Virus record (IMG/VR): IMGVR_UViG_3300044557_000281
Span: 26,156 to 90,155 of that record
DNA: 64,000 nucleotides
Reading direction: 5' to 3' (one strand)
Source: a virus
Taxonomy: Duplodnaviria; Caudoviricetes
Positions 669 through 63,841 of the stretch are shown here, piece after piece. A program made the translations under genes and the position numbers. Numbering within the stretch: position 1 is the first letter of the stretch; every line of letters begins with the position of its first letter. The notes under the pieces are model-generated. The model made no database searches, was not told where the DNA came from, and saw only the letters and a list, made by a program, of their open reading frames with translations.

Positions 669-738
669 CGTTTAGGCTTAACCCTCACCCTCACCCCCTT
701 ACATTTATTATTATAGATCCTTTAACTTAGTAAGTCAA

Positions 739-1104
739 CTACTTATTTAAAAGAATTTGTTCTTCTAAAAACTTTTCTGTTTCGGTAACTTTAGCTTCAT
801 TATCTGTCATAGTAATTTCTAAGCCACTTGACCATTCGTTCAAATATGTTTCTTGAATGATAATGAACTTACGAGGTTTAGCTTTCCCGATCTTAATGCG
901 GTCAGTCCCATAAATAATGTAATTGTTTACTAATCTACCCTCATACGTTTCTACCCAACAGTTCAAGTTTTCAGCAAAGTCCTCCCAACATTTCAAGTTT
1001 TCAGCAAAGTCCACCAAACAGTTCAAGTTTTCAGCAAAGTCCACTAGTCTATTCACTGTTTCTAAGTCTGCATTGATTTTGTAATCTCTCATGATAAATT
1101 CCAC
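739..1104 (-). CDS. Hypothetical early protein with internal 10-aa repeats
   Basis: 121-aa ORF behind promoter 1147-1175; DFAENL repeated three times. Confidence 0.75.
   Translation of the reverse strand: MEFIMRDYKINADLETVNRLVDFAENLNCLVDFAENLKCWEDFAENLNCWVETYEGRLVNNYIIYGTDRIKIGKAKPRKFIIIQETYLNEWSSGLEITMTDNEAKVTETEKFLEEQILLNK
961..1045. repeat. In-frame 30-bp tandem repeat, about 3 copies
   Basis: Core TTCAAGTTTTCAGCAAAGTCC at 962, 992 and 1022. Confidence 0.95.
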
Positions 1105-1200
1105 CTTTAGTTTTATTTGTTGTTTCCTTATCTCTCTTACAAACCTAGTATAAGCTCTTTGAGCGAATAAGTCAACTACTATTTAAAAAGAATTTAAAAA

Positions 1201-1340
1201 TAATAAATAAATATTTATGGTTGTAATTGGTACCCTAGTATGGTATACTTAATTTATAAAGAGGTGGGAAACCAGATGGCACACCGAACCACGGCTATAA
1301 TGTAAGCGCTTACATTTAGGTGTTACTTCCTTGTTTGACC
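1201..1340 (+). other. Repeated counter-oriented cassette, copy 1 (promoter, RBS, short ORF, cre-like palindrome)
   Basis: TTGTAA 1221-1226, TG-n-TATACT 1244-1249, AGAGGTG, ATG 1276, TGTAAGCGCTTACA 1301-1314. Confidence 0.7.
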
Positions 1341-1504
1341 CGAACTGATTTAAAAAAAAGCCCGTGAATTTTATGAGAATTTTTTAATTTACTTCACCTT
1401 CCTTTCTAATTTTACTGACCTCACTATCCACCTTTCCCTTATAAGTTAAGTATAGCAAAGGTGGGCTAGTAAGTCAATAACTTTTATTAAGTTTTTTTAC
1501 TAAT

Positions 1505-1735
1505 TTATTTCATGTTTGCAATGTGGTTTATATTGCCTTTATACAAGAAACAATTTTCATCATTATAGGCGTTATATGGTAGCGTGTTAGGCGTCCCGCT
1601 TGCTGTTCCTTGTGCTGTTAGTGTTCCCGCTTCCTTGTTGTTACTGATAATAATTTCAATATAGCCAAACATTTCCGATTGAATGACGTCCCCAGCTGTC
1701 AGTATGTTAATGTTATTTTTATTTATTTTATACAT
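1505..1735 (-). CDS. Hypothetical early protein
   Basis: 76-aa ORF in the early gene run. Confidence 0.6.
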   Translation of the reverse strand: MYKINKNNINILTAGDVIQSEMFGYIEIIISNNKEAGTLTAQGTASGTPNTLPYNAYNDENCFLYKGNINHIANMK

Positions 1736-1796
1736 AGTATTTTCCCCCAGTAAGTCCTAGCTACCTCTCACGATAGCTAGGCTAGTTTATTAGTTG

Positions 1797-2366
1797 TTAT
1801 TGTAATGCACTTGCGGCAACTTCTTCATAGCCGGCAGATGGTTCACGGAAAGCGGTATATATAAGTTCTTCTTTGTCGTAGTCGTAATAGTAGCCAACAA
1901 CTTCCATTTCAGTGCCATCTTTTAATGTTATGTTAAACTCTTCCGCATTGTTTACCGCGTCCATAGCGCGATCTAATTCAGGAATACCTGTAATCACATG
2001 CTCAAAGTCAACGCTTGCCCAGTTATCAATAATTTCAGTTTCATTGTCTAACAGCTTTTGTTCATAGTCGTAATTGTTAATACTACAAATGTCCATGTTA
2101 TCACTAATGTAAAAATAGTCGTCTGACCATCTAAAGTCGCTGTCTAAATTGCTTACAATATCGCTAGGTGAGTAACTTTGTAAAGCACCGTTAAATGCTT
2201 CATTGTCTAAATCCATCACCGCATAATCTTCCAGTGACCTATTATGGCATGTTAAGTCACTGATAATAGCTTTAAATAGCGCAACTTTTTCGTCATTGCT
2301 TGCCCGTTTTACATAAGTAGTTACGGCTTCCGATAAACTGTCAAATCCAGTATTTAATGTTTTCAT
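1797..2366 (-). CDS. Acidic hypothetical early protein
   Basis: 189-aa ORF, AAGGAGAG RBS, promoter 2430-2458. Confidence 0.8.
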   Translation of the reverse strand: MKTLNTGFDSLSEAVTTYVKRASNDEKVALFKAIISDLTCHNRSLEDYAVMDLDNEAFNGALQSYSPSDIVSNLDSDFRWSDDYFYISDNMDICSINNYDYEQKLLDNETEIIDNWASVDFEHVITGIPELDRAMDAVNNAEEFNITLKDGTEMEVVGYYYDYDKEELIYTAFREPSAGYEEVAASALQ

Positions 2367-2470
2367 GATAATTTCTCTCCTTGTAGGGGTCGAACCTTAT
2401 TGCCCGTACCCCTTATCTCTTACAAACCTAGTATAAGCTCTTTGAGCGAATAAGTCAACTACTATTCTAA

Positions 2471-2665
2471 CTAATTTTTAAAATAATTATTTGCTTCATA
2501 ATCTGCTAAGGCTAACTCTAAACTGTCGTAGCTGTCAAAGTATTCCGTATGAAAGTCCCCATTGTCTGCATAGTCCTTAACTAACAAGTGGTAGTAAGTT
2601 TCTTCCGTCCCATCAGTTTGTACCACTTGAATGCTGTCGTTTTCCCAGATAGTTGTATTTGTCAT
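2471..2665 (-). CDS. Acidic hypothetical early protein
   Basis: 64-aa ORF, GGGAG RBS, promoter 2697-2725. Confidence 0.75.
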   Translation of the reverse strand: MTNTTIWENDSIQVVQTDGTEETYYHLLVKDYADNGDFHTEYFDSYDSLELALADYEANNYFKN

Positions 2666-2840
2666 TTTTATTACTCCCTTTCTTTCTTACAAGTTCATTG
2701 TACCATTGTTTAATCAGTATTGCAAGCACTAGTTTCAATTCTTTTAAAACTTTTTTATTGGCTGCCCCCTTTCCCTTACAAACCTACTATAGCATTATCT
2801 AATTAGTAACACAATCATTTATCTAAAAGAATTTAAAGAA

Positions 2841-2980
2841 AATAAATAAATATTTATGGTTGTAATTGGTACCCTAATATGGTATACTTAATTTATAAAG
2901 AGGTGAATACCAGATGAAACGCCAACCCAACGATATAATGAAAGCGCTTACATTTAAGTGTTACTCCCTTGTTTAGTGTC
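2841..2980 (+). other. Repeated counter-oriented cassette, copy 2
   Basis: TTGTAA 2860-2865, TATACT 2883-2888, AGAGGTG, ORF 2914-2976 (MKRQPNDIMKALTFKCYSLV), TGAAAGCGCTTACA 2939-2952. Confidence 0.7.
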
Positions 2981-3217
2981 TGGATTTTTAAAAAAGTCCC
3001 ACACACTTTTTGCAGCATTTTAATTATTTTCTCATTCCTTTCTAATTTTTATTTTTACCTGCCCTCCTTACAATTCTTATTATACACTTGTTAACTTAGT
3101 AAAGCAAGCACTATTTTAAAAGAATTTTGAAAGAGTGCTAACTTAATAACACTCTTTCATTCCTTTTAATCCGCTGTTACACTAGTAAAGACAACGCCAT
3201 TTTCTGTTAAGTAATCC

Positions 3218-3841
3218 TTAACGCTTTTTGCGGATAGGTGTAATCAAATAAGTGAAGTCAATGCTTGATACTACGAATGGCTTAGTAACCGTTGAGTAAT
3301 TAAATTCAATTGTTTCCCGTGTACAATCGGATAAGTAGTCACAAACAAAAGCAAAGCAATCTCTTAAATATTCACAATTACAAAGAATAGCGGTATGGTT
3401 AACAATCTCACTACTACTAACAGCTAACTCGATAGATACGGGACTAGTAATCACACTAGACTTATTTTCTTGGAACCCGATTGTCATTTTATCTTTGTCA
3501 ATCGTAAGTACCGCTATGCTTTTCTTAAAGCTAGTCAAAATTTTAACGTTATCTTTAGAAAAAGCGTTACGTATTAAATGCACTCTATTCGATTGATTTG
3601 TTTCGATAGCACCCTCTATAATTCTATCAGTTGCAGGATAACGCCCGTCAATTTCTTGCATAGTGTTAATATTAAGCACCATATCGTTTTTAATTTCCCC
3701 AATAAAATCAGTTTCTAGCATACGGTAACTGTCAGTAGCAACGAGCTTATTACGGTCGGCTTGGAAATGCACGCCACCTAAAATCGGGCGTGAGTCTGTT
3801 TTCTTAGTGATTGCAGTAAAGTGTTTGTTTAAATTTTTCAT
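3218..3841 (-). CDS. DNA polymerase III beta-clamp-like protein (partial DnaN fold)
   Basis: SRPILGGVHF...LVATDSYRM resembles the DnaN middle-domain motif; 207 aa. Confidence 0.6.
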   Translation of the reverse strand: MKNLNKHFTAITKKTDSRPILGGVHFQADRNKLVATDSYRMLETDFIGEIKNDMVLNINTMQEIDGRYPATDRIIEGAIETNQSNRVHLIRNAFSKDNVKILTSFKKSIAVLTIDKDKMTIGFQENKSSVITSPVSIELAVSSSEIVNHTAILCNCEYLRDCFAFVCDYLSDCTRETIEFNYSTVTKPFVVSSIDFTYLITPIRKKR

Positions 3842-4122
3842 GGTATTTTCTCCTTATGAGGTCAAGCCTTATTGCCAGTACCTCGTATCTCTTACAAGTT
3901 CATTGTAACAAAGTTAATTAAGTAAGTCAACTACTAATTTCAATTCTTTTAAAACTTTCTTACCAGTTAACTTCTTGCTTATCTCTCTTACAAAACCTAG
4001 TATACACGCACTCTATTCCTAAGTCAACAACTAAATACAGTATTTTTCAAATTAATTTAAACCTTCATTTTTCTATTTATATAGTAGAAACACGACTATT
4101 TTAATTAATTTAAATAAACCTA

Positions 4123-6989: not shown

Positions 6990-7596
6990 GATTAAATTTT
7001 ATTTTGATGGTCATGGGTTGACTCATATTAATTATCCCTTTCTTTGATTTTCAACATATCGTTTAATTGTTTGACTAGATACGTTCCCAGCTGTTGATAC
7101 GAAATAACTACGTACCCATAAACTAGGCATTGCCTTTAGTTCTGAAAATTCATCACGTAACTGCCTTGATGTCCCTCCTTTAATTTTAGCCATTATATCA
7201 GCAGGACTATAAGTTGGTAGTGCATTTATGAAAAGATGACAGTGGTCTTTATCGGTTTCTAATGCCACTATGTTAAAGTCATATTTTTGAGCAATTTGAC
7301 CTACCAATTCTTTAAACCTAGCATCTAAATGTTTATTAAAAAATATTTTACGTCTGTATCTGGGGCAAAACACAAAATGATAGTTGATTAAACTTACGGT
7401 TGTTTTAGTTCTTCTGTACTCTTCCATGATTCAATGTTAACATGGAAATATATGTTAGTCAATAGCACATACATCAATTGTTGAAAAAAGGATAGTGAAA
7501 ATTTGGCTCTTCGATTTCTCTAAAAGAGAAACCTTGTCACCACTTCACTACCATCCCACGATTAAAACCGTGGGCTTTCCCGTTCAGGTAATTCTG
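6990..7596 (-). mobile_element. Truncated IS200/IS605 element (left end, tnpA, tnpB stub)
   Basis: Left-end hairpin CCCACGGTTTTAATCGTGGG (7555-7574); tnpA; MSQPMTIKIKF stub from 7026 runs into a homopolymer; no right end seen. Confidence 0.75.
7032..7427 (-). CDS. tnpA: IS200/IS605 Y1 HUH transposase
   Basis: [16 protein letters not shown] (HUH), WVRSYFVST and the C-terminal YVENQ helix. Confidence 0.95.
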   Translation of the reverse strand: MEEYRRTKTTVSLINYHFVFCPRYRRKIFFNKHLDARFKELVGQIAQKYDFNIVALETDKDHCHLFINALPTYSPADIMAKIKGGTSRQLRDEFSELKAMPSLWVRSYFVSTAGNVSSQTIKRYVENQRKG

Positions 7597-19033: not shown

Positions 19034-20429
19034 TTGAACTACCCCACCTTATTTTCAAAGAAAATTGAAGGTGGGGATTCCTAAGAACTAGACTGACTTA
19101 GAGCTATTTTTTATAGCTCCAGAGGTTATCTATATTGATTAGGCTATCCCCGTAGTCCCTACGGTTCTTTTTTTTTTATTTTAATTTAAGGCTTGATTCA
19201 GAATATTTTGTGCGGCATTGATATCTCTATCATGTGTTGTGTTACAAGAAGAGCAAGTCCATGTCCTTACGGACAATGGTTTTTTCCCGTCTATGACTCC
19301 ACAATTTGAACAGACTTGTGAACTTGGATAGAATCTATCTATCACGACAAGCTCTTTATCGTACCAATGACACTTATACTCAAGCATAGAACGAAAAGCA
19401 CCCCAAGATACATTCACAATAGCTTTTGCTAATTTATGGTTTCTCATAAGTCCTTTCACATTTAAGTCTTCAATAGCAATGAAATCATTCTCTTTCACTA
19501 TTTTTGTGCTTAACTTATGAAGAAAGTCCACTCGTTGATTGCGTACCTTTTCATGTAACTTTGCTACTTTTAGTTTTTGTTTTTGATAGTTTTTTGCCTC
19601 TGAAAGAGCTTTACCATCTCTTTTTGCTTGTTCGTATCTACGAGAAAGGATTCTTTGTTCTTTCTTTAACTGTTCTTCGGCTTTTTTGATGAAGTTAGGA
19701 TTATCTATTTTTTGCATATTCTTGTCTGTCGTAATAGCAAAATGAGTTAATCCTAAATCAATACCAATACTTTTGTTAGTCTTTTCCATTGGTTGAATGT
19801 CTTCTTCTGTTAACAACGAGATAAAGAACTTACCACTAGGATTTCTTCTTATGGTTGCAGAGATAATTCTCCCCTTAACTTCACGAGAAAGTGCAACACG
19901 AACAAGCCCTAATTTTGGAAGTTTGACCTTATTCCCCTTTATGGCAATGTTGTTGTTAACAGATTTAGTTGTGTATGATTGTCTTGAATCATGTTTTTTC
20001 TTGAATCGTGGATAATGATTCACTTTTTTGAAAAACATTTGAAATGCCTTATGTAAGTCAAAAACAGCAGTTTGAAGGGCGATTGAATCAACTTCTTTAA
20101 GAAAATCCGTCCCTTTTTTCTCGTTTGTTAAGTTCTTACTCAAGGTTTTCTTACTAGTTTTTACACCCTTTTCATAATCAGCATTCCATTGAGCTAGTGC
20201 TTTGTTATAGACAAAACGAGTGCAACCGAAAGTCTTATTGATTAAGACAGACTGTTCTTTTGTTGGATAGATTCTAAAACTGTAAGCCTTGTATGTCATT
20301 GGACTTTCGACCCCTTTCTTTACTTGTATTATACCACAAAAAGACTAAAAAGTCAACATTGTAGGGGAATTCATCTCCTCCTTAAAATCATTCTGATTTT
20401 TGAAGAAGGAGTCTTCTTCCCTTTTTTAG
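19034..20429 (-). mobile_element. IS1341-like TnpB-only IS200/IS605 element
   Basis: Right end ...GGTGGGGTAGTTCAA ends at 19034 after a hairpin; left-end hairpin near 20365-20410; left boundary approximate (after TTAT). Confidence 0.85.
19181..20299 (-). CDS. tnpB: RNA-guided endonuclease TnpB
   Basis: IGIDLG, IAIEDL, C-x2-C zinc finger, HDRDINAA. Confidence 0.97.
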   Translation of the reverse strand: MTYKAYSFRIYPTKEQSVLINKTFGCTRFVYNKALAQWNADYEKGVKTSKKTLSKNLTNEKKGTDFLKEVDSIALQTAVFDLHKAFQMFFKKVNHYPRFKKKHDSRQSYTTKSVNNNIAIKGNKVKLPKLGLVRVALSREVKGRIISATIRRNPSGKFFISLLTEEDIQPMEKTNKSIGIDLGLTHFAITTDKNMQKIDNPNFIKKAEEQLKKEQRILSRRYEQAKRDGKALSEAKNYQKQKLKVAKLHEKVRNQRVDFLHKLSTKIVKENDFIAIEDLNVKGLMRNHKLAKAIVNVSWGAFRSMLEYKCHWYDKELVVIDRFYPSSQVCSNCGVIDGKKPLSVRTWTCSSCNTTHDRDINAAQNILNQALN

Positions 20430-28565: not shown

Positions 28566-28899
28566 TATAATTTGCCCTCCTTTGGTCTTATTATAACTCT
28601 TGTTTTGATTAAAGTAAAGCCATAATCTTATTATTTTCATTTGTTTCGGTGGACTGTAAGAGATGTCCGTATACTCGTTGTACCATAGAGGTGTCTGTAT
28701 GTCCTAAACGCTTAGCTACCACCTGTAATGAAATTCCTTTGGGTGAACTACTCACCACTTAGCTAAACCTAACGGTTTCTTACGCTTGAAGTGGGAGCTT
28801 CTTGGGAATAGAGCGTACTTGCAAGCGTATTTCTTTGCTCACAGCGGTGTCTCTTATTTACCAAGCTATCCCCGTAGTTCCTACGGTTCTTGATTGTAC

Positions 28900-30051
28900 C
28901 TAAGCTAATGATTGTATTCTTAGACCTTCGGTCAAGATATTGATACTAGCGTTGATGTCTCGGTCGTGTTGAGTATGACAAATAGGGCAAGTCCATTCTC
29001 GAATATCAAGAGATTTCTTACCATCTTTGTGTCCACAATTCGAACAGATTTGGCTAGATGGAAACCACTTATCTACTTTGATGATTTTCCGACCGTACCA
29101 GTCAGCTTTGTATTGTAATTTAGTCACAAAACTAGACCAAGAAACATCCGAAATACTTTTTGCTAGTTTATGATTACGCAACATACCTTTTGTGTTTAAG
29201 TCTTCAATACAGATGATATCGTGATTTTTGATAATTTCTGTACTCAACTTATTCAGAAAATCAGTACGTTGATTCATTACTTTTTCATGCAATCGTGCTA
29301 CTTTTCGTTTTTGCTTTTGGTAGTTTTTAGCTTCGAATAGATTGATACCTTTCTTTTTAGCTAAAAGACCGCGTCTTGACAACTTACATTGTTCACGTTT
29401 TAGTTTCTTTTCCATTTTGGATGTGAATTTATTATTATCAATTTTTTGTCCGTCAGAAAGAATTGCAAAGTCAGTAATACCTAAGTCAATACCAATCGCA
29501 GACTTCATCTTAGGTAATTCGTTAACTTCTTCTTTGCATAACAGAGAAACATAGTATTTACCGCTAGAATGACGTGAGATTGTAGCGGACTTGATAATCC
29601 CTTTAGGCTGTCTATGAAGTTTAATTTTGATTAATGATTTTAATTTAGGAACTTTGATAAGTCTATTATCAATCAAAGAAATTGTTCCATTTTGATTATT
29701 CGTTGTATAACTCTGAACAGGATTTTTCTTACTCTTGAAACGAGGAAATCCAATGGATTTATCCCGAAAGAAATTCTTGTATGCTTTATCTAAATTAAGT
29801 TGTGCATTGGCTAAAGCAAGGCTATCAACTTCCTTCAAAAACGGAAATTCTTTCTTGTATTTAGCAGGTGTCGGAAAAGTCATTGTTTTAGAAGAATCAT
29901 TTTTTACTTCTTCATACGCCTTTATTCGGTCATTAAGCATTAGATTGTAGACCTTACGGATGCAACCAAAAGACTTAGCAAAGAAAATTTCTTGTTCTTC
30001 TGTTGGATATAATCTAAACTTATATGCTTTTAGTCGTTCCATAAGGCTCAC
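28900..30051 (-). CDS. tnpB: RNA-guided endonuclease TnpB
   Basis: IGIDLG, ICIEDL, zinc finger, HDRDINAS. Confidence 0.97.
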   Translation of the reverse strand: MSLMERLKAYKFRLYPTEEQEIFFAKSFGCIRKVYNLMLNDRIKAYEEVKNDSSKTMTFPTPAKYKKEFPFLKEVDSLALANAQLNLDKAYKNFFRDKSIGFPRFKSKKNPVQSYTTNNQNGTISLIDNRLIKVPKLKSLIKIKLHRQPKGIIKSATISRHSSGKYYVSLLCKEEVNELPKMKSAIGIDLGITDFAILSDGQKIDNNKFTSKMEKKLKREQCKLSRRGLLAKKKGINLFEAKNYQKQKRKVARLHEKVMNQRTDFLNKLSTEIIKNHDIICIEDLNTKGMLRNHKLAKSISDVSWSSFVTKLQYKADWYGRKIIKVDKWFPSSQICSNCGHKDGKKSLDIREWTCPICHTQHDRDINASINILTEGLRIQSLA

Positions 30052-30058
30052 CTACTTT

Positions 30059-30463
30059 CTATTTATGATTATTCCCTTGATTCTGAATATATTTCTTTAT
30101 AACGTCAATCGGTGCACCACCAGTAGTCAAAAGACAGAAGCTTTTAGACCAGAACATTTCCTTCCAGAGAAATTGTTTTACTCTTGGAAAGTCACGTTTT
30201 ATCAAACGAGAACTAGCACTTTTATAGGCATTGATGAATTTTGTTAATTCCGTTTTTGGTTGAGCTTTGAACATGATGTGAATATGGTCTTTATCATGAT
30301 TCCACTCAACTAAAGTAATGTGATACGATTTTGAAATTCTTTCAAAAGTATCTTTAGCATAATCAGATATTTCATCATCAATCACTTGTCTACGATACTT
30401 CGTTACTAAAACAAGGTGGTAATAAAGAAGGAATACTGAATGATTATTTGTGTCTAATTCCAT
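30059..30463 (-). CDS. tnpA: IS200/IS605 Y1 transposase
   Basis: YHLVLVTKYRR, DHIH, FWSKSF, YIQNQ. Confidence 0.97.
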   Translation of the reverse strand: MELDTNNHSVFLLYYHLVLVTKYRRQVIDDEISDYAKDTFERISKSYHITLVEWNHDKDHIHIMFKAQPKTELTKFINAYKSASSRLIKRDFPRVKQFLWKEMFWSKSFCLLTTGGAPIDVIKKYIQNQGNNHK

Positions 30464-30732
30464 GTTATATCAACTCATTTCTTATATAGACTGATTATAA
30501 CATAAGATAAAATAAAAAGTCAATATTGCCTTAACTGTCGGTTTTCGAGTTACCAACGGTAACCCTTATACTGAACGGCATTCATCACCCACCTATAGAG
30601 GATGGGCGACTTCTGCCTAATTCTGTTAAAAGGTAGGAAGCATGTGTATGGCGTAATTTATGGAACGCTGACACTCCACACGACTAAAGTCGTGGGGTTC
30701 TTAGGTAGTACACCCTAACAGGTGCAAATTTA

Positions 30733-30945
30733 CTAAGCTATCCCCGAAAGTCCTTCGGTTTTAATATTTACGCTTGTCCAAGATAATATAACGGGGTATA
30801 GAACCCTATATGTGGGTGCTACTACGATAAAAGATTCGTTTATATATAAGAAAGGGTTTGTAGGGTCTATCTCCACACTAGGTAGAGATAGCTTTTCTAC
30901 AAACCTCTTAACATTGCCTGTTAAACTTAAGTAGGCAACTAACAT
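30733..30945 (-). pseudogene. nrdI: Truncated flavodoxin-like NrdI fused to the tnpB 3' end
   Basis: YLSLTGNVKRF...IVVAPTY, then [11 protein letters not shown], identical to the C-terminus of tnpB 52773-53891. Confidence 0.8.
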
Positions 30946-30947
30946 AT

Positions 30948-31178
30948 TTAAACTGCCAACTTAGCAATCAAGTCAGGTCTAAACCCTGAGAATGGCTCTC
31001 CTACAGGAGGGACTACGAAAGGTGCCTCCATAGCACCTTGGTTGACCGCCTCTTCTCTATACTCGTCATTAAGGTCAATATGTCTCTCTTCATACTCTAA
31101 CCCTAATTTTTCTAACTCTTTCTTAGTAAAGGTACATTGTCCGCACCCTGCCTTAGAATATACAATAACTTTACTCAT
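30948..31178 (-). CDS. nrdH: Glutaredoxin-like NrdH
   Basis: YSKAGCGQC, APFV, FSGFRPD. Confidence 0.9.
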   Translation of the reverse strand: MSKVIVYSKAGCGQCTFTKKELEKLGLEYEERHIDLNDEYREEAVNQGAMEAPFVVPPVGEPFSGFRPDLIAKLAV

Positions 31179-31194
31179 TCAAAACCACCCTTAT

Positions 31195-31914
31195 TTAATG
31201 TATTACTTTATATAATCTTTCTGTCCTACCTCTATTTGAATTGTTTATGGATGATACCCCTATAGTCACCTCTTTGCACCAAAACTCCTCAAAAATGTCC
31301 TCAGGCATATCATACTCACTAATAAGCACTGTGTTATTCTCTGCCATTTGTACACACCACTCATAAAATTCATTATGAGAAAATGTGTCCCGATAACCTA
31401 AGGTACTTTTATAGGGAGGGTCACAATAAATAACGGCACCCGATACTGTTTTAGGGTCATAGTCCTTATACGAGCCTAACCCAAATTTTATACCCTTTAA
31501 GTTAGGAGCTTGGTTAATAATATTACGTATACCTTCACTAGACATGTCACGTTTACCCTTTCTGTCTCTAGCAAACCCGCCAAAGTATTTAGCCCCAAAT
31601 GTAGCACAAAAACCTACTAAGCCAACGTACCAATCAGGGTAGCTATTCTTATTATCCCTAACATTGATATACTCGTCCTCAGTTATCGTACTAGGTAAGT
31701 TACTAATATTGTCCTCGTCTTGGACATAAACAAGTAGTGCAATAAGTTTCTCATGAACATCCGTCCCTATCTTAACTGGACTCTTAATCTTATCAATCAT
31801 ATTAGCCCCTCCAACGAAGGGCTCTATGTACATTGTAGTATCCTCCGTTATATATGATTGAATTATTGGTGCTATTTGTTTACTCAGCCTGTTTTTACTT
31901 CCTACGTATTTCAT
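31195..31914 (-). CDS. Dam-like (D12 class) adenine methyltransferase
   Basis: KYVGSK, IEPFVGG, YCDPPY, LISEY. Confidence 0.9.
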   Translation of the reverse strand: MKYVGSKNRLSKQIAPIIQSYITEDTTMYIEPFVGGANMIDKIKSPVKIGTDVHEKLIALLVYVQDEDNISNLPSTITEDEYINVRDNKNSYPDWYVGLVGFCATFGAKYFGGFARDRKGKRDMSSEGIRNIINQAPNLKGIKFGLGSYKDYDPKTVSGAVIYCDPPYKSTLGYRDTFSHNEFYEWCVQMAENNTVLISEYDMPEDIFEEFWCKEVTIGVSSINNSNRGRTERLYKVIH

Positions 31915-31924
31915 GTTAAACCTC

Positions 31925-32890
31925 CTAGATAAAGTCGTCTGAAAATACTTTGTCCACTAACTCTGTTAAGTAGTTTAAAGTTATTTCACCGTCATTTTCT
32001 TCTAACCACTCATTATAAGCGGAAAGGAACCACAGCATGTAGGTTGTGTCCACTCCGATTAATTGCTCCCTTAAAACGTCAGGGTTTTTCAAATCTAACT
32101 CTTGTAGCTGAAATACCATTTTAAGAATCTGACCTGCGTTAACAGAGAACCCTCTTTGAATAAACTTACGCATACGGAATAGAGAACATAGTGGAAACTT
32201 AGAACCTGTGTATACTAGCTCATGAGTCATCATAGACACAAGGGCTTCCTTAGGTAAACCTAATTCTTTTTCTTTAGGGTCATACCAACAAGTACAATGA
32301 ACGAAATCAAAGTTCTCATGTATTTGTTCAGGAGAACCAACAAACCTCAATATAAGCTGTACTTTACCTGTTAAACTAATTGCGTTGTCTGTAAAATACA
32401 CTGGTTTGTGTCTAGTTTCCTCAGTGTCCTCCACATTAGTATCTTCATCAGTTGTAGGTTTCAAGTCCTCATTTTTAAGTAACTCAGTATCTTGTGCCAC
32501 ACCTGACGATTTTATAAATACTTTTATCGGGTCAGTTGCTCCTTTAAATTTATGTGCGTCTGCCACATCAATATCTACACTCTCGCCTTCTCCTCCATAT
32601 CCCTCTACGGAGGACGTTGTAATATCAGCATACTGTAGTTTAACTGATTCTTTGTTTTTCTTTTTATTAAACATTTTAGCATAGTAATCTGCGACTATAA
32701 TAGCTGAGTACGTGTCCCTAAAGTATATATCTAGGTCGTTCAAATCACCTACCATAAGTAAGCTAGCAACAGCACCTCCTGTTACGAATGTGCCGTCTTT
32801 AGCTACTTTTCTTACTTCTTCGTCTGTTATAGATTCTAGCCATGCTTTGTGTTTTCTACCTATAATGCTTTTTACAGTTTTAGTTTTCAT
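31925..32890 (-). CDS. Nucleotidyltransferase-superfamily protein
   Basis: TGGAVAS...DLDIYF motif; own TTGACA promoter. Confidence 0.65.
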   Translation of the reverse strand: MKTKTVKSIIGRKHKAWLESITDEEVRKVAKDGTFVTGGAVASLLMVGDLNDLDIYFRDTYSAIIVADYYAKMFNKKKNKESVKLQYADITTSSVEGYGGEGESVDIDVADAHKFKGATDPIKVFIKSSGVAQDTELLKNEDLKPTTDEDTNVEDTEETRHKPVYFTDNAISLTGKVQLILRFVGSPEQIHENFDFVHCTCWYDPKEKELGLPKEALVSMMTHELVYTGSKFPLCSLFRMRKFIQRGFSVNAGQILKMVFQLQELDLKNPDVLREQLIGVDTTYMLWFLSAYNEWLEENDGEITLNYLTELVDKVFSDDFI

Positions 32891-32952
32891 AATTATCTCC
32901 TTTTATCATATTTTAATTAATAATACCATAAAAGAGATAATTTGTCAACTAA

Positions 32953-33032
32953 TTACTTTATATGTTTAACTCTAGCGTCAATCTCTTTTTTACGACCATA
33001 CGCATTAGGTCTAGCTTGTGGTTGTCCTAAAT
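32953..33032 (-). pseudogene. nrdD: Orphan 3' exon of anaerobic ribonucleotide reductase
   Basis: (Y)LGQPQARPNAYGRKKEIDARVKHIK matches the NrdD C-terminus at the glycyl-radical CGYLG motif; no 5' exon in the window. Confidence 0.75.
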
Positions 33033-34271
33033 CCTTTATACCCTCGGTTTCCCGATATTTATTAGGGGCATAGACTATACAATCACCTAAACGGTGGCTA
33101 TATTATAGTCGTTGAACGTTATCTATGGTTAACTTTTTATATTTTTCATATTTACGGTCTAGATACACAGTAGCATTCCTGTACAGTATAGTTAACGCCA
33201 TTCTAGCGTTGTTACCTCCTAGAGAGATATAGAAAATACCTTTAGCCCTGTATAACTGACTTTTAGACTTTGGTGCAATTATCGGCTTAACCACTGACAA
33301 GAGTTGTTCAGTACCTAGCATAGAAAACCTAACTCCTGATTTGCTGTTGTATACTGAACCATCTCCATCGAAGTAACCTCTAATAAAGTGGTTAACTAGA
33401 TTATCGTCTAGTTTAGGAAACTTTAGTGTTTTACTTTTGTTGGGTGTTAGCCCCTTGTCTAGTAAGTCATTATACATTTTTCTACTAGTAATGTTTAGTA
33501 CACAATACTTGTAGTCTTCACCGCTGTATGAGCTACTATTGCTAGTATACACATGAATAGGGATGTTACTGCTTAAACTTGAGTTTAATTTGTGTAAGTG
33601 GTCTATATCCTTTACAGATAACTTCACGCCTATAACTTTCCCGTTAGTAACGTACCCATCAGCCATGAGAAAACCTAACCAGTAAGCTTTATGCTCTGTG
33701 TTTATAACCTCAAAGTAGTCGTCATCCCAAGTATAAACCTTACCATTAGACTCTACCCCTCTAATAGAAATGTTATTCTCTAGTAGCACTCTCTTTATTA
33801 CAGATGTGCTTACTGAAAACTTACTGGCTATTGCTTGTTGACTACTTCCTGCATTGTAACTTGTTAGTATAATTTCTATATCTTTATCCGTAAATATTTT
33901 CTTTTTTACCACATGTGTACCTCCTATAAGTTAGTTATACTTATAATATAGCACAATGGAGTTTAACTGAGCCATAAATCTTCGATGCGGATTTCCCATT
34001 TATCCACCCTTAGCACCTTTGTGACAAGGCTTTTATTTCAGCTTAGGTAATCTAACTAATTTTTTCTGCTTTCGCAACGTTCACGCTCACCGTTTCCAGT
34101 CACGTTGTAATTTAGTTAGCTTTACGTATTTCCAGCAATTCAGTTTCTTCATTGGGCAATATGAGTTTTTGTATTGCCTCTAAATGCAAGTTTCCCTACA
34201 TTCTTACAGTACGTCTACGGGCTATCATCCACACGGTTTTAACCGTGTGGGTTTTCTCGCCCGCAAATTCT
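33033..34271 (-). ncRNA. Chimeric group I intron containing a homing endonuclease
   Basis: Core P 34129-34140, Q 33985-33994, R 33106-33117, S 33072-33083. Confidence 0.85.
33103..33912 (-). CDS. Double-motif LAGLIDADG homing endonuclease
   Basis: YWLGFLMADGYV and FIRGYFDGDGSV; ORF runs into intron P7; GGAGG RBS. Confidence 0.93.
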   Translation of the reverse strand: MVKKKIFTDKDIEIILTSYNAGSSQQAIASKFSVSTSVIKRVLLENNISIRGVESNGKVYTWDDDYFEVINTEHKAYWLGFLMADGYVTNGKVIGVKLSVKDIDHLHKLNSSLSSNIPIHVYTSNSSSYSGEDYKYCVLNITSRKMYNDLLDKGLTPNKSKTLKFPKLDDNLVNHFIRGYFDGDGSVYNSKSGVRFSMLGTEQLLSVVKPIIAPKSKSQLYRAKGIFYISLGGNNARMALTILYRNATVYLDRKYEKYKKLTIDNVQRL

Positions 34272-35196
34272 ATAAGTGGTCTGGTACACCGCAAGCGGTT
34301 AAGACTCTTCTTAAAGTTTCGTTCACTGTAGAATTAACTGGGTTACGGTCTGTGGCTACAAAGTAAGGGGCATGTGGTTGAATTGTGTCATAGATGCTTC
34401 GCCACTGCTCAAATTTAGCTAAGAGAGTTAACCAATCTTGGTCAATTACAATCGTTCGTACACTAGATAAGTTCTTGGTTGGGGCATAATCTTTGGTATA
34501 TTTATAATCCCAAGTCTTATCAATTCGGATTGTATTATTGTTGATTGAATCCTGATTTAGTCCTAGAATTTCAGATAAACGAGCACCAGTCTTTAGGGCT
34601 GTGTAAATAGGGAACATATAATACTGGATAGCGGTTTCTCTAGCCCTCGGTTTCCCTTGGGTATTAAAAGAAACTGGTTCCTTGGTTAAGAATGTGTTTA
34701 ACCATGCTTCTGTATAAGAGACCACTCTAGTGTACTCATCTACCTCTAACTATTTCTTGGCATTTCGCTCATTAGACAGTTCTAAGATAGTCATTTGGTC
34801 GTCCTTACTGGTTAGAGTGATACGTTTATAAGGGCTTACTGGGATATAATTATCAATTACTGCGTCCGATAAGCATGATTTTATGTAGTTACTTTCTGTT
34901 TTTACTGTTCGTTTACGGTGGGTTAGCCCGTAGTCTTGCATATACTGCTGAATATCTTTACGAGTAATTTTAGTGAGTTGTAGTTGCCCTAGATTAGATT
35001 TAGCTAATCGGTCTCCTGTAATCGTGTATTTTTCTAAGGTTGCTAATCCTACATTAGGTTTCTTGTATAAGTTTACCCACTCGTTATACCACTCTGTCAT
35101 TTTCATGTTATTTATTCTCTCCTTCTTTGTTTTAAGTACAAGCGTAGTATAACAGTATTTATTAGTGTTGTCAATACTAATGTTAGAGTAAAATAA

Positions 35197-35222
35197 AATG
35201 ATTAGTTGTGTGAACTAATCAT
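35197..35222 (-). terminator. Intrinsic terminator just outside the invertible cassette
   Basis: ATGATTAGTT-loop-AACTAATCAT followed by a T-rich tail on the minus strand. Confidence 0.7.
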
Positions 35223-35258
35223 TCTATTCTTCATGCTATTTAAACAACAAATTTCGTT

Positions 35259-35723
35259 GTTGTAAAACGAGAGGAACTAACGGGAACTGATGTACAGCAA
35301 CGTGTGGAAACGACTATTTACGTAAGAAATAGAATCATTGCTAAATCAATTGTTAAAAACACTTATATTAATCCGGCAAACGGAAATGAAGATTACCAAG
35401 AGGGGAATGCTGTATTCACTACAGCACCCATCGCAATTGCCGTCAAAGAAGTTTCGATAGCAAAATATGAAAAAACTACATATGGAAACATTGCTATGAG
35501 TTTTTATAAAGCTATTCCACCGTCTGGTTTTGTGAATACTCTTGTTGTTACCACAGATGGAGAAACCAAGGAATCTATGTCGTTTACAATTGATGAGAGT
35601 ATTAATTATATCCGCTTTAGTCCTGATGCAAATAACGGCGACTATAATTTTAAATTCAAACTAGTATCTGGAACTGAAATAGGCGGAAGAACACTAGCTC
35701 CAGAGGACATCTTAGCTAGCTAG
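35259..35723 (+). CDS. Silent alternative C-terminus (variant B) of the 35712-36317 protein
   Basis: Open from the repeat (VVKREELTG...YVRNR...TLAPEDILAS); no RBS before the GTG at 35304. Confidence 0.75.
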   Translation, partial: VVKREELTGTDVQQRVETTIYVRNRIIAKSIVKNTYINPANGNEDYQEGNAVFTTAPIAIAVKEVSIAKYEKTTYGNIAMSFYKAIPPSGFVNTLVVTTDGETKESMSFTIDESINYIRFSPDANNGDYNFKFKLVSGTEIGGRTLAPEDILAS

Positions 35724-36200
35724 TATACTTTCAGCTGGAATGGTCCAAATGTATGAATCTTCCGAACTACCTTTTCTTAAAGAAAGCTTGCGTGCCTGAC
35801 AGATAACTGGTAGATTGCCATCATTTTGGGTAATCATGACCAGACCGAGGGTCGTAGAATTTTCGGTTGTCAGTACTGTCGCGGTTGTGATACCCTTGCT
35901 TCCATTTTTCACTTCTTGATTGCTTCCCCAATCTGCAACTGTGCCATCAGAAAGATGGGACTGTAATTGTACACTTAAAGGCAATGTGTTAGAAGGCGCG
36001 GTATTATCAATTTCTATGCTTGCCGTATAATTTTCGTTAGATTGAACATTGAGTAGTTCAATCTCCCCATTGTTCCAACCAGTAAATTTATATTCAACCC
36101 ATTTTGAGGTACTAAGTAAACTAGTTAAATTGCGACTATACACCACTACCCCCTCACGCTCAACGGCACCACTAGTAGCTACAACATCTCGTTTTACAAC
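35259..36200. other. Putative invertible cassette bounded by 14-bp inverted repeats
   Basis: GTTGTAAAACGAGA at 35259-35272 (+) and its reverse complement at 36187-36200. Confidence 0.8.
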
Positions 36201-51918: not shown

Positions 51919-54900
51919 CTAATTTAACAATCTAATTAGTTCTCCTGTACCATCTGCTTTCACGGAATGTTCATGAATGACTTTCCATGCTAATTCTTTC
52001 CCTAAGTCGTTAGCGTCCTTCTTATAAGGGTTAATGACCATATAGGTATTTTTATGATAGGGCTTAATCCGTTCAGCTAACCAGTAAATTTTATCTTTAG
52101 CGTCTTCATCTAGCATAATATAAATCTTCTGGTCTTCTGTTAGGTCTTCTGTAATGAGTTGTATCTGTTCATCTGTAATCTGCTTCCCAAATGTTCCTAC
52201 ACCCGATATACCTAATGTAAGTGCGTCTGGTACGCCTTCTGTAATCACAAGTTCTTTACAACGCTTTGCACGATTTAGATTAAACACCGCTGTGCCTTTT
52301 GAATACTCATGGTCTTTGGCTGGTGCATTTACCGATTTTACAAAGGAATCTCCAATTGCTCGTGTGTTCCAATAAATCACTTGCCCTAAATCATTATGAG
52401 TTAGAAACACCACATGGTTTTTTAGAGTGAGTGTTTTATGGCTAGGGGTTTCTATCTTAGAATAGGTAATGTACCCAATGTTATGGACTATGATGTCTTC
52501 TGTGGTAAACCCTCGTTTATTTAAGTATTGCAGGAACGGGATAATTTCTGGGTTCGTCCAGTTATCTGCAATCCTTTTAAATCCCGGTGGAAGTAACGGA
52601 CAAGTGAGTTGCTCGTGTACTGCTTCAGTGACTTTCTTTATATCGTTCATATGAGAAATCAGCATGAGTAGCTGTTCTTCTGGACTTAATGACGTATCGA
52701 CTTTATCCTGACACTCCACACGACTAAAGTCGTGGGGTTCTTAGGTAATACATCCTAACGGACGTAAATTTACTAAGCTATCCCCGAAAGTCCTTCGGTT
52801 TTAATATTTATGCTTGCATTAATATCTCTATCATGAGTTGTTCCACAATTTGAACATATCCATTCACGAATATTTAGTTCTTTTTTACCGTCATTATGAC
52901 CGCAAACAGAACAGATTTGTGAACTAGGATAGAATCGGTCTACTTTAACTAAAGTGCGACCTTTCCATGCACATTTATAGCCCAGTTGTCGAACGAATTC
53001 ACTCCAAGATACATCTGCTATTGACTTCGCTAATTTATGATTTTTAACCAACCCTTTTACATTCAAATCTTCAATACAAATGATTTGGTTCTCATCAGTA
53101 AGTCGTGAAGATAGTTTATGTAAAAAATCAGTACGTTGGTTTGAAATTTTCTCATGGATACGCGCAACTTTAACTTTCTGTTTTTGATAGTTGCGACACT
53201 CATCTAATTTTCGATTGTGTTTTTTCGCAACTTCCAAACGCTTGGAAAGTTTTCGTTGTTCGCGTATTAACCGTTGTTCAAGAGAGCGATAGAATCGGTT
53301 ATTATCGATCTTTTCTCCTGCGGATGTGATACAGAAATGAGTTAAGCCTAAATCTAATCCAATGTTATTTGCTACGGGTTCTTCTATGAAATTTTCAGTA
53401 TCAACTAAAAACGTTGCAAAATATTTCCCTGATTTGCTTTGACTAATCGTTACGTTCATTAGTTTTCCTTTAAAACGCAATTCTTCTGCCATTTTGACCC
53501 AACCGACTTTCGAAACATAGAAGTATCGACCATTGACTTTCATGCCTACGGCAGTTCGATAGGATTTCTTCGAGTGTTTTTTACTCTTAAATTTAGGAAA
53601 GCCAAAATTAGATTTGAATGTATTCTTATATGCCTTGTTTAAATCCATATTCACTTGACTAAGAGGTTGTGCTTCAACTTCTTTTAGCCAAGAAAACTCT
53701 TCTTGCTTCTTAAGTCCAGCATAGGTTAGTTTATTTTCAATATATTCAGGATTTTCTTTTTTCATCTTATAATTCGTAATTCTCTGGTCTAGTAAAAAAT
53801 TCCAGTAGAATCGAACGCAACCAAAGGTTTTTTGAAATTGAATTTCCTGTCTTGAATTCGGATAGATTCTAATTTTATGAGCTTTTTTCATTTCTGTACA
53901 CCTCCTTAACGTAAACTCAGTATCTTGTTCTTTGATTTTCTACATATTGTTTTATAGTTTCGCTAGAAACGTTTCCTGCTGTTGAAACAAAGTAAGACCG
54001 TGTCCAAACACTTGGCATTTTGCTCAAGTGCTCAAACGATTGTCGTAACTCTCTTGATGTTTTTCCTTTAATCACCTTCATGACATCTGCCGGCGAATAG
54101 ATTGGTTGAACATTTACAAAAAGATGACAATGGTCTTTATCTGTTTCTATTGCAATGATTTCCCATTCATTTTCTTTACAGATTGAATGGACAAGAGTCT
54201 TAAAACTAGCGTCTACTTCGGAATTGACAAATATTTTCCGACGATATCTAGGACAAAAAACAAAATGATAGTTGAGTAACGATACAGTTGTCTTAGTATG
54301 TCTGTACTCGTTATCCATGAGTTAATTATACATTAATTAGTGTACGAAGTAAATATTTTTATACACAAATAGTAAAACTTTTTTGACTTTATCGTGTGGA
54401 GTTTGTTCACATAGGTTCGCTATTTCCTATGCAGTTCTCTTATGAACTTCTTACGCTTTCACGCAAGCACAGACTATATCTTATCCGTTGGCTTTACCCA
54501 GTACGGCGAAACCACTTCGAGTCGCTTGACCCTACTTCCCTCAAGAGGAATAGTCGTTGAACCTTCCTATTTCTAAGCTTGGCTGCTGATTTCCGATTGT
54601 GTAACACTTAGGATTTAACCTTATGCCATCTGATTGATTTATTCTGCTTTCGCCACCGTCACGCTTGAGTTTGGTTATCTCTACGTTGTGGTTCAACCAG
54701 CTTTACGGATTTCCAGCAATTCAGTTTCTTCATTGGGCAATATGAGTTTTTGTATTGCCTCTAAATGCAAGTTTCCCTACATTCTTACAGTACGTCTACG
54801 GGCTATCATCCACACGGTTAAAACCGTGGGTTTTCTCGCCCGCAAATTCTATAAATGGAATCATCTATGGAATAATCGTAAACGGCTAAAATGTCTTTAG

Positions 54901-61949: not shown

Positions 61950-63704
61950 TCACGTTAAAGGAACTTCTTTTATTTCAAATCCTTCTTCTAAATAAATCTT
62001 TCTACGCTCTTTGGAATGCTTATGCGTATGCTTATTAAACAAGTCCATAAAGTCATAAACAGTGGCTACATTCTCTCCGGTCTGTTTCTTACGCAACACA
62101 CGCCCTACACGTTGTAAGACCTGTCTCATAGACTTCCCACCAGCGCCTAAGATTAAGGTATTAATCCCTGCAATGTCGACCCCTTCATCAATCAAGGAAG
62201 TAGCAATCAATACTTTTAATTTACCAGAACGCATATCAGAAAGTTGTCGTTTTCGACTACCATCATCTACTGTCCCATGTAAGAACTCAAATACAATGTT
62301 CTCTGCTTTCAGTAATTCTGATAAAGCTTCTCCGTGCTCTACTCGGTTCACAATGATTAGAATGCCTTTGCCTTGGTCATACTCACGTTTTGTAAGTTTT
62401 GCTATGACCATGTTACGGTATAGGTTTTTAGCAATCCCTTCGTCATACACTTTCATGTAATTTTCTTCAGATTGTAAAGAACTAGGGGACATAATAGGGA
62501 TAATGGTTACAGTAGGCTTAGCAGAAATCCCTCTAGCAATCATTTCCTGATTGGTAGTCTTAACGGTTATACCACGGAATAAACCTTGCATACGTTGCCA
62601 TAGCACCTTATTACGCTTATCAATAGAACCAGTTAAGGCTATCCGGTATTGGGCGTTAGTACAAGTCAGTAACGAGTTGTACCATGAATCAGAAGAAGTA
62701 TGGTGCGCTTCGTCCACAATCATGACCGTAACTGTTTTCATAAACTCTTGTATATCTTTACGCTTCTGGTATACTTTACCATTCTTAGCCTGTAAGAGTT
62801 TCGTATACTCCGCTACGTACCCTCTCATAGTTAATTTTACTTCCTTATCTGTCCCACAAGAATAAAGAATATCTTCCAAGTCCCCTTTTAGTTCTTGTTC
62901 AGTTTTCTTTTTCGTACTCATGTTTTTTATAAAAGCTTGTAAAATCATTTTTTGGTTAAAACCATCAACCATTTTAGGGGCTACGTCTTTTGCTAACCGT
63001 TTCAATTTACGTTGCTTAGCGGACAATTTCAACCCAGCTTCTGGGTCAGTAGTTAGTGCTTTATTGATTGTAGGTATCATGACTACATTCACTTGGCGTA
63101 TATCCTTTTTCCCATCACCAATTTTCCCAACTTTTATCCCTAATCGTTCAGAAATACGGTCAGCAGATTGGTTAAAGATTTCTTTCGAGTGAGTAAAGAA
63201 TGCAATGGTCTCTCCACGCTCTAAGTACGATTGCAGTTGTTGAATGATACCGGAAGCAATTTCCGTCTTACCACCATTCGTAGCTACATTGATTATTCCT
63301 ACTTCGTCTTGTACAATCGACTTCACAGCGTCATATTGGTAGTCACGTAGTGTGATACTGGAATCTTTATCTTTTAATTTGATTTCTTTATCCATGTCGT
63401 CAACATCAATAAATTTATCAGGTTTGTCATAAATAACATTGTACTGAAAAGTTAGAGAGTTTTGTAAGCCGCCTAAAGCAACTTCTACTTGTTCGAGTAA
63501 CCCAGTAGGAAATTCTTCTTTTTCCTTGTCATAGAAATAGACTTTCCCGTCCCAGTACCCTCTCTTGTATGCCGGACTGAATTGATAACCTTCTTCAAAT
63601 ACTGCAAGTTCGTTATCCATTACTCTATGTACAGCATTCTTGACTGACCATTCTTCTGGTTCAAACTCTATATGTGCCATCATGGAATTTACAATTATTT
63701 TCAC
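61950..63704 (-). CDS. SF2 DNA helicase
   Basis: LRDYQ, ATNGGKT, DEAH, TGS, QRVGRVLR. Confidence 0.95.
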   Translation of the reverse strand: MKIIVNSMMAHIEFEPEEWSVKNAVHRVMDNELAVFEEGYQFSPAYKRGYWDGKVYFYDKEKEEFPTGLLEQVEVALGGLQNSLTFQYNVIYDKPDKFIDVDDMDKEIKLKDKDSSITLRDYQYDAVKSIVQDEVGIINVATNGGKTEIASGIIQQLQSYLERGETIAFFTHSKEIFNQSADRISERLGIKVGKIGDGKKDIRQVNVVMIPTINKALTTDPEAGLKLSAKQRKLKRLAKDVAPKMVDGFNQKMILQAFIKNMSTKKKTEQELKGDLEDILYSCGTDKEVKLTMRGYVAEYTKLLQAKNGKVYQKRKDIQEFMKTVTVMIVDEAHHTSSDSWYNSLLTCTNAQYRIALTGSIDKRNKVLWQRMQGLFRGITVKTTNQEMIARGISAKPTVTIIPIMSPSSLQSEENYMKVYDEGIAKNLYRNMVIAKLTKREYDQGKGILIIVNRVEHGEALSELLKAENIVFEFLHGTVDDGSRKRQLSDMRSGKLKVLIATSLIDEGVDIAGINTLILGAGGKSMRQVLQRVGRVLRKKQTGENVATVYDFMDLFNKHTHKHSKERRKIYLEEGFEIKEVPLT

Positions 63705-63841
63705 TGAATGAATCTTCCTCTCTCATAGTTCAATTATACCTTTAATTCTGAATCATTACAACAATTATTTTCACTGAATGAATCTTCCTCTCTCATAGTT
63801 CAATTATACCTTTAATTCTGAATCATTACAACAATTATTTT
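63691..63841. repeat. 70-bp exact tandem duplication of the helicase promoter/RBS/start
   Basis: 63691-63760 equals 63761-63830, plus an 11-bp partial copy. Confidence 0.95.

Follow-up and report, generated by a model that had tools for sequence, protein, structure and literature searches.

What broke a single phage gene into three pieces spread over 6.5 kb, and what do the sequences lying between the pieces record? We address this question in a 64,000-nt window (bases 26156-90155) of a 90,155-bp IMG/VR virus contig (IMGVR_UViG_3300044557_000281; completeness rating of about 60%), in which the pieces of a tyrosine site-specific recombinase gene lie on the minus strand between positions 35106 and 28609. 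Coordinates are those of the window, except those preceded by G000:C1, which refer to the whole contig. The gene is a dead pseudogene, very probably inactivated recently by an IStron insertion, the exchange of the IStron interior for foreign phage DNA, a second insertion of the IS605 type, and a TGG-to-TAG change.

The phage is uncultivated and, judging by gene content and DNA matches, it is placed as Herelleviridae-like with putative Enterococcus-type hosts: its gene set includes a helicase, SbcCD, a G1 gp67-like protein, and a primase, and short high-identity DNA matches were found to phages of Enterococcus, Staphylococcus, Listeria, and Brochothrix. As an independent check of the assembly, Logan contigs of four runs (X1-X4) were compared with the IMG/VR contig. 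X1 is the best-matching public run, a bioreactor sludge metagenome, X2 comes from another study, and X3 is a third sample.

A recombinase gene in three pieces

Three minus-strand segments of 835, 42, and 134 nt join in frame to give 1011 nt and 336 codons. Piece 1 (34272-35106) contains codons 1-278 and the first base of codon 279, encoding the N-terminal SAM-like domain and the catalytic Arg and Lys; its translation has 278 residues, a single TAG, and ends in ...VPDHL plus one base. Piece 2 (30626-30667) completes codon 279 with two bases, runs through codons 280-292, and opens codon 293 with a single base; the catalytic H-x-x-R (HKLRH) is encoded here. Piece 3 (28609-28742) adds the two bases that complete codon 293, then codons 294-336 and the stop codon, and encodes both the catalytic His (LGH) and the nucleophilic Tyr (VYGH). 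The joins read ...CACTTAT/CGTTCCAT... and ...CTTTTAA/CCAAAGG..., and the rebuilt 336-residue product reads ...VPDHLSFHKLRHTHASYLLTKGISLQVVAKRLGHTDTSMVQRVYGHLL... This reconstruction had been proposed by a first-pass annotation made from the letters alone, and our measurements reproduce its three pieces, its two in-frame joins, and its total length.

A database search with piece 1 returned 19 relatives, and the 18 that are full-length measure 326-468 residues; identity over piece 1 reached 38% at best. The rebuilt protein aligns with these 18 full-length homologues end to end, at 38-45% identity and with no gaps at either join (joint alignment through the joins: LSFHKLRHTHASYLL / TKGISLQVVAKRLGHTDTSMVQRVYGHLL); alignment across the joins had been put forward as the means of refuting the reconstruction, and all 18 available homologues run through both. 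From the 54 columns invariant among them, 53 are kept in the rebuilt protein. The six catalytic residues, distributed across all three pieces, fall on invariant family columns (GARLSE, PTKN, HKLRH, LGH, VYGH), which bears out the complete R-K-H-R-H-Y set claimed earlier. All 18 homologues carry the Pfam domain PF00589 (Phage_integrase), and each piece taken singly scores below the gathering score of this family. On the profile, piece 1 matches positions 27-122 and piece 3 positions 143-169; the ~20 positions in between are supplied by the 14-codon middle piece, which supports the gap being real. The homologue profile matches the solved tyrosine recombinases 3nkh (S. aureus integrase), 6emy (Tn1549 Int), and 1a0p (XerD), with E-values from 2e-20 to 7e-9 and the same R-K-H-R-H-Y pattern.

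The start of the gene is preserved. There is a sigma-70-type promoter match (35146-35174, minus strand; TTGACA-17-TGnTATACT with an extended -10 TG), and the consensus promoter of the first-pass annotation holds with 11 of 12 consensus positions. A ribosome-binding site, GAAGGAGAG (35117-35125, minus strand), is also intact ahead of the ATG at 35106. The in-frame TAG noticed earlier at codon 119 (34750-34752, minus strand) replaces the Trp of the family motif KKWLEVDEY and is one base from TGG, being thus a TGG-to-TAG nonsense change on a conserved residue; it is also present in an independent X1 contig. Recoding or suppression of this codon was considered and ruled out, since TAG is an ordinary stop that terminates 21 of the 86 long ORFs on the contig, where no suppressor tRNA was found among the three tRNAs (Thr, Ile, and Arg). 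The reading frame is interrupted by this codon and by two insertions of 3604 and 1883 nt.

The two insertions and the hybrid intron

The first interruption (30668-34271, minus strand) is a composite element of 3604 nt. To interpret it, we compared it with a complete group A IStron of 2143 nt found inside the DNA primase gene of the same phage (52708-54850, minus strand), which has a ribozyme, an intact tnpA (54318-53917, minus strand), and tnpB. The 5' part of this primase IStron scores 65 bits against Rfam Intron_gpI (54788-54450; threshold 50), and its precise removal leaves an open 352-codon primase frame. The composite is similar to it over 34279-34035 (85%, near-perfect only to 34102) and over 30776-30668 (94%), and the two share their outermost 20 nt at either end without a difference. 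The insertion motifs are T-rich, CTTAT for the recombinase copy and TTTAT for the primase copy, and about 65 nt into both copies a GUAAG is found that could pair with the exon end, with a U-G at the splice site. The first-pass annotation had taken this insertion for an IStron: its ends are indeed true IStron ends, but it is not a plain IStron, as the tnpA/tnpB interior has been exchanged for foreign DNA.

Group A IStrons such as CdISt1 of Clostridioides difficile (Tourasse et al. 2014, PMC4227781) are likewise inserted 3' of a T-rich pentanucleotide, use the last G as 3' splice site, and have the ribozyme in the left end and the tnpB tail/omega-RNA region in the right end, the primase copy being a complete example of this organization. 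Their introns belong to the IA2, Twort-like type (Zedaveinyte et al., bioRxiv 10.1101/2023.11.20.567912). The copy in the recombinase gene differs from CdISt1-like elements in that tnpA and tnpB are missing, the ribozyme is that of a homing intron from P4 on, and about 3.3 kb of unrelated phage genes are present. ORF-less IStron derivatives are known, and none with foreign cargo is described there (PMC4227781).

Reading the composite from its left end, the IStron-derived 5' part (34138-34271, minus strand) contains the left-end hairpin, retained with compensatory changes, the putative guide GUAAG (34207-34203), which could pair with the exon end CUUAU, and the P3 5' strand GAAACU. It is followed by part of a homing-endonuclease group I intron (33033-34137, minus strand) comprising P4-P6, an ORF in the P6 loop, P7, P3', P8, P7', P9, and a 3' splice site G at 33033. 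The ORF (33103-33912, minus strand) encodes a LAGLIDADG homing endonuclease of 269 aa (PF14528) with an N-terminal helix-turn-helix (PF13936), and the 3' half of the intron lies downstream of it (33102-33033, minus strand). The stretch 34137-33036 is 98% identical to an X3 contig (20 differences in 1102 nt) with unrelated flanks on both sides, which indicates a mobile intron unit that is elsewhere found in another gene. The intron core (34140-33981) resembles introns of Enterococcus and Staphylococcus Herelleviridae at identities of up to 90%, and for the 3' part the nrdD intron of phage iF6 matches at 85%.

Next comes an orphan last exon of nrdD (32953-33032, minus strand), with the final 26 codons, (Y)LGQPQARPNAYGRKKEIDARVKHIK and stop, 81% identical to the Schiekvirus nrdD 3' end. 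The layout of intron plus endonuclease before the nrdD last exon is that of phage iF6, and the last exon and the 3' intron match iF6 and EFDG1. Phage nrdD homing introns (T4 nrdD/sunY; iF6, MT909815) share with this one the insertion codon, RxCG/YLG of the glycyl-radical motif, the 3' intron sequence, the last exon, and the placement of a free-standing endonuclease ORF within a peripheral loop. On the other hand, no upstream nrdD exon is present here, and the 5' end is the IStron left end on a recombinase exon. The phage also has a resident nrdD outside the window (G000:C1:13735-18040, plus strand), split by introns into several pieces, at least one intron with an endonuclease-like ORF (G000:C1:15959-16594). 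Its last intron (about G000:C1:17680-17950) is ORF-less, scores 34 bits in Rfam, and occupies the same codon (RLCG/YLG) as the homing intron of the hybrid. Since the resident gene has a different last exon and lies on the other strand, the nrdD exon inside the recombinase gene is a second, foreign allele. An nrdG gene is found downstream of the resident nrdD (G000:C1:18410-19006).

The remaining cargo, all on the minus strand, consists of genes for a nucleotidyltransferase-like protein of 321 aa (31925-32890; phrog_4400), a D12-class DNA adenine methyltransferase (dam) of 239 aa (31195-31914; PF02086), and an NrdH-like glutaredoxin of 76 aa (30948-31178; PF00462), followed by a stump of nrdI with its first 47 codons (30805-30945), where homology ends at residue 47. 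A relative of this cargo in X3 covers 32973-30809, from upstream of the nucleotidyltransferase-like gene into nrdI, at about 85-97% identity, and the X3 contig over nrdI continues beyond 30809 in non-aligning sequence. No nrdE was found on the contig. Between the nrdI stump and the tnpB tail, ~21-31 nt (including the approximately 21 nt of 30804-30784, beyond which the frame continues into the tnpB tail) have no source in phage records. The element closes with the IStron right end (30668-30783, minus strand; 94% identical to 52708-52816), formed by the last 13 codons of tnpB, all that the composite keeps of the IS genes, and the omega-RNA/right-end region, with the terminal G as 3' splice site.

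The window departs from the primase IStron from 34127 onward and matches X3 from 34137, so the crossover lies in UGCUGGAAAU (34137-34128), a conserved P4 strand. The P3 5' strand is just upstream of this point and the P3 3' strand comes after P7. By covariation, P3 is GAAACU/GGUUUC in the primase IStron, CUGUA/UACGG in the resident nrdD intron, and GCUAU/AUAGC in the X3 intron. The hybrid would have to combine GAAACU with AUAGC, whose best duplex has 3 pairs and +0.1 kcal/mol, against -4.8 for the natural combination. As its P3 strands are mismatched, the hybrid ribozyme is expected to be crippled, and it probably no longer splices the recombinase message. Among the public runs listed as containing the stretch, none is of RNA. 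A complete IStron ribozyme is not present in the composite, in which the IStron contribution to the ribozyme ends with the P3 5' strand. If the hybrid acted at all, its nearer, cognate 3' splice site (G at 33033) would be used in preference to the one before piece 2: both upstream exons (recombinase piece 1 and nrdD) end in phase 1 with T, and joining 34272 to 33032 places recombinase codons 1-278 in frame with the 26-codon nrdD tail. A GCCCA at 34156-34152 was considered as a retained nrdD guide and rejected, since the same bases are found in the primase IStron copy and are IStron-derived.

A similar process is reportedly known from phage T4, where Bryk and Belfort are said to have described, in Nature in 1990, domain shuffling between the td and sunY introns through recombination in conserved core sequences. 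In both cases short conserved ribozyme cores recombine to give a hybrid intron and a genome rearrangement. The case presented here differs from T4 in that one partner is an IStron, cargo genes are carried along, and the second junction lies outside intron sequence.

The second interruption (28743-30625, minus strand; 1883 nt) lies 3' of TTTTAA at codon 293. It encodes a Y1 transposase (tnpA, 30463-30059, minus strand; PF01797, E-value 2e-42) and tnpB (30051-28900, minus strand; PF01385, PF07282, PF12323), and has no intron (ribozyme) part, with 162 nt ahead of tnpA. Its ends were set by two Enterococcus phage copies, a tnpB-only one in EFP01 and a 469-nt ORF-less one in EF1: TTTTAA precedes the left end, and the right end reads ...GTAGTTCAC, both in the window and in EF1. 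No target duplication is present at the join. The element is a plain IS200/IS605-family insertion, in agreement with the IS605 reading of the first-pass annotation.

Diverged variants of 28743-30625 occur at high summed contig depth in X1, X2, and X4 (sludge and chicken-gut metagenomes), with an internally deleted form in X4 (joint 28888 to 30538), and this element circulates far outside this phage. There are omega-RNA-like scaffolds at both right ends in the recombinase gene (30668-30783 and 28743-28892), the second with a weak Rfam match to the Enterococcus sRNA Ref70 (31 bits). The guides downstream of both right ends would match the uninterrupted recombinase allele, so we infer that TnpB could cleave intact copies of the gene in co-infecting genomes. 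Further IS200/IS605-type genes are found in the window (7032-7427 and 19181-20299) and at G000:C1:21775-23031, being a tnpA about 75% identical to that of the primase IStron and two additional tnpB-like ORFs. The phage is heavily colonised by this family.

Proposed history and its alternatives

The first-pass annotation attributed the loss of the gene to three hits. That there is one dead recombinase gene is correct, but three events are not enough: as the interior of the first insertion was replaced, at least four are needed. We propose, with high but not full confidence, that a group A (IS200/IS605-type) IStron entered after CTTAT at codon 279, which was probably harmless because splicing would have removed it, as for the sister element in primase. 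Its interior would then have been swapped for foreign phage DNA, with the left crossover in the P4 strand shared with the LAGLIDADG homing intron of an nrdD gene and the right junction connecting nrdI codon 47 to the last 13 codons of tnpB. Such a swap would have deleted tnpA and tnpB, brought about 3.3 kb (the endonuclease, the nrdD last exon, the nucleotidyltransferase-like gene, dam, nrdH, and the nrdI stump), and left the two P3 strands mismatched, so that the recombinase message would no longer be spliced. Third in this likely order, an ordinary IS605-type element would have entered after TTTTAA at codon 293, and last, codon 119 would have changed from TGG to TAG.

Several points weigh against this history. 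In IMG/VR, searches with the nucleotidyltransferase-like protein, the homing endonuclease, and two exact DNA patterns turned up nothing closer than 41% protein identity, and neither an intact nor an IStron-only allele in a close relative. The order of events is in part our inference, as are the loss of splicing and the role of the enzyme, and an origin of the hybrid in situ is likewise presumed. The natural P3 5' strand is known from one 30-nt loose end of a low-depth X3 contig (depth 7.9). With lax filters, Rfam gave no Intron_gpI match in the composite, which we attribute to the 810-nt ORF in the loop, and its fold is read by homology only. Finally, a 115-nt perfect repeat (about 34216-34102) is crossed by none of the Logan contigs listed, and linkage across it depends on an argument by exclusion and on the assembler that built the original contig.

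The alternative that survives best is that the 3.6-kb composite arose elsewhere and transposed into the gene as one unit, with TnpA acting in trans (that of the primase IStron, for example, which is intact at 54318-53917). On this reading, inactivation of the gene would have been immediate, with no silent, spliced stage. The composite has what such a move would require, since both ends are complete, their terminal 20 nt are identical to those of an active-looking primase copy, the left-end hairpin is kept with compensatory changes, and the site CTTAT resembles the primase site TTTAT. On the other hand, a second copy of the composite was not found in the contig or in viral collections, and the IS200/IS605 family is not known to mobilize a cargo of 3.6 kb. 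We consider this origin unlikely, although it keeps appreciable weight, and the data do not separate it from replacement in situ. A further step would be to see the composite as a working vehicle, a non-autonomous IStron relying on TnpA in trans for the movement of its ends and on TnpB homing for their defence. This is improbable in our view; if true, phage genomes would exchange through it genes for a homing endonuclease, a Dam methylase, a nucleotidyltransferase-like protein, and NrdH, and recombination between transposon-borne and homing-endonuclease-borne IA2 introns would be a general route of gene capture and movement in phages.

An error of assembly is a further alternative. The source is a metagenome contig, the composite and the primase IStron have perfect repeats of 115 and 45 nt in common, and the Logan contigs break at these repeats; an assembler could have switched there between IStron copies, or to a third intron, so that the recombinase gene would really have a normal IStron or none. 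We regard this as very unlikely. X1 contigs span 30741-33068, 33039-34157, and 34209-35300 and reproduce, with 0 differences, exon 1 with its TAG, the exon 1/element junction, the inner hybrid junction, and the nrdI/tnpB-tail junction, the last two lying away from the repeat borders. A contig from X2 also crosses the exon 1/element junction (34271/34272). The X1 contigs end at repeats common to the composite and the primase IStron, and separate X1 contigs lead from primase exon 1 into the true IStron interior and from the true tnpB into primase exon 2, with their loose ends at 34279, 34118, 30776, and 30668. As both primase exons are joined to a genuine IStron interior in contigs of their own, the hybrid is assigned to the recombinase gene by exclusion. 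Moreover, a swap between the two copies would place the cargo inside the essential primase gene, and the recombinase-side copy has private differences within its first 60 nt. Empty-site alleles (34272 joined to 30667, or 30626 to 28742) were not found in the Logan contigs of the four runs; as rare variants are dropped from such contigs, this is no evidence that the alleles do not exist.

That the gene is still conditionally functional, with the composite spliced, the IS605-type element excised precisely as DNA, as is established for IS200/IS605 elements (PMC10055086), and the TAG read through, is hardly conceivable despite its 53 of 54 invariant positions, its intact promoter, and a guide GUAAG apparently still complementary to the exon end, since a single molecule would have to undergo three independent rescues, the P3 helix is broken, exon 1 would be fused in frame to the nrdD tail through the closer cognate 3' splice site at 33033, and TAG is a normal stop here, with no suppressor tRNA on the contig.

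The enzyme, its neighbours, and the meaning of the locus

What the recombinase did before its inactivation can be approached through its homologues. Their identity of 38-45% means that they are not orthologues, and by sequence these nearest relatives are a metagenomic clade; the integrases of cultured phages reach at most 28-30% identity. The six homologue contigs that we read (L010, L011, L012, L013, L096, and L097) are all early/replication regions of phage-like contigs, with genes for ParAB, RecU, SSB, DnaB/DnaC-like proteins, and Rep nearby, a setting and a clade that distinguish this enzyme from the solved tyrosine recombinases. A PF02384 N6-methyltransferase gene adjoins the recombinase in 5 of these contigs, often overlapping it, and the pair looks unstudied. 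Only L096 has a visible lysogeny module, where a canonical integrase and an S24 repressor are found additional to the recombinase.

Beside the interrupted gene there is a candidate invertible segment (35259-36200), with the two arms of a perfect 14-nt inverted repeat at its borders (35259-35272 and 36187-36200). The repeat lies in the same V-V-K-R phase of an expressed 201-codon gene and of a convergent silent frame that stays open for 154 codons from the repeat. By itself the repeat is not significant, since 59 of 300 shuffled sequences have one as well, and BLASTP detects no similarity between the two cassettes at 35.3-36.3 kb. The layout is that of an inversion switch and the segment is a possible substrate of the recombinase. 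As in the R64 shufflon with Rci, or in Mu Gin and P1 Cin, a recombinase gene adjoins an inverted-repeat segment with two convergent, here putatively alternative, C-terminal cassettes; Gin and Cin are serine recombinases. The present segment differs from those switches in the weakness of its repeat, in the dissimilarity of its cassettes, and in the neighbourhoods of the homologues. The first-pass annotation had suggested looking for intact orthologues beside such a cassette, an expectation that failed, as none of the six homologue contigs has an invertible cassette next to the recombinase. We consider a role as invertase rather doubtful, and one linked to replication or to the methylase has a somewhat better chance, short of even.

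Repeats of other kinds also occur in the window. A 70-nt unit is found in perfect tandem duplication at 63691-63830, and a 40-80-nt intergenic repeat (TCTCTTACAAACCTAGTATA...AAAAGAATTT) is present in five to six copies at 689-3959, probably promoter or terminator regions repeated along an array of early genes.

That mobile elements have destroyed a gene is ordinary in itself. What sets this locus apart is that one genome holds both an intact IStron, in its primase gene, and a derivative whose ribozyme underwent an exchange at P4 with a homing-endonuclease intron, and a hybrid of IStron and homing intron that has captured genes is unusual among the variants of known elements. It constitutes a natural record that two kinds of mobile IA2 introns can recombine in phages, dragging neighbouring genes along and probably breaking splicing, and it yields the prediction that restoring P3 complementarity would restore splicing. 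The locus also points to an unstudied clade of tyrosine recombinases encoded beside a small N6-methyltransferase gene.

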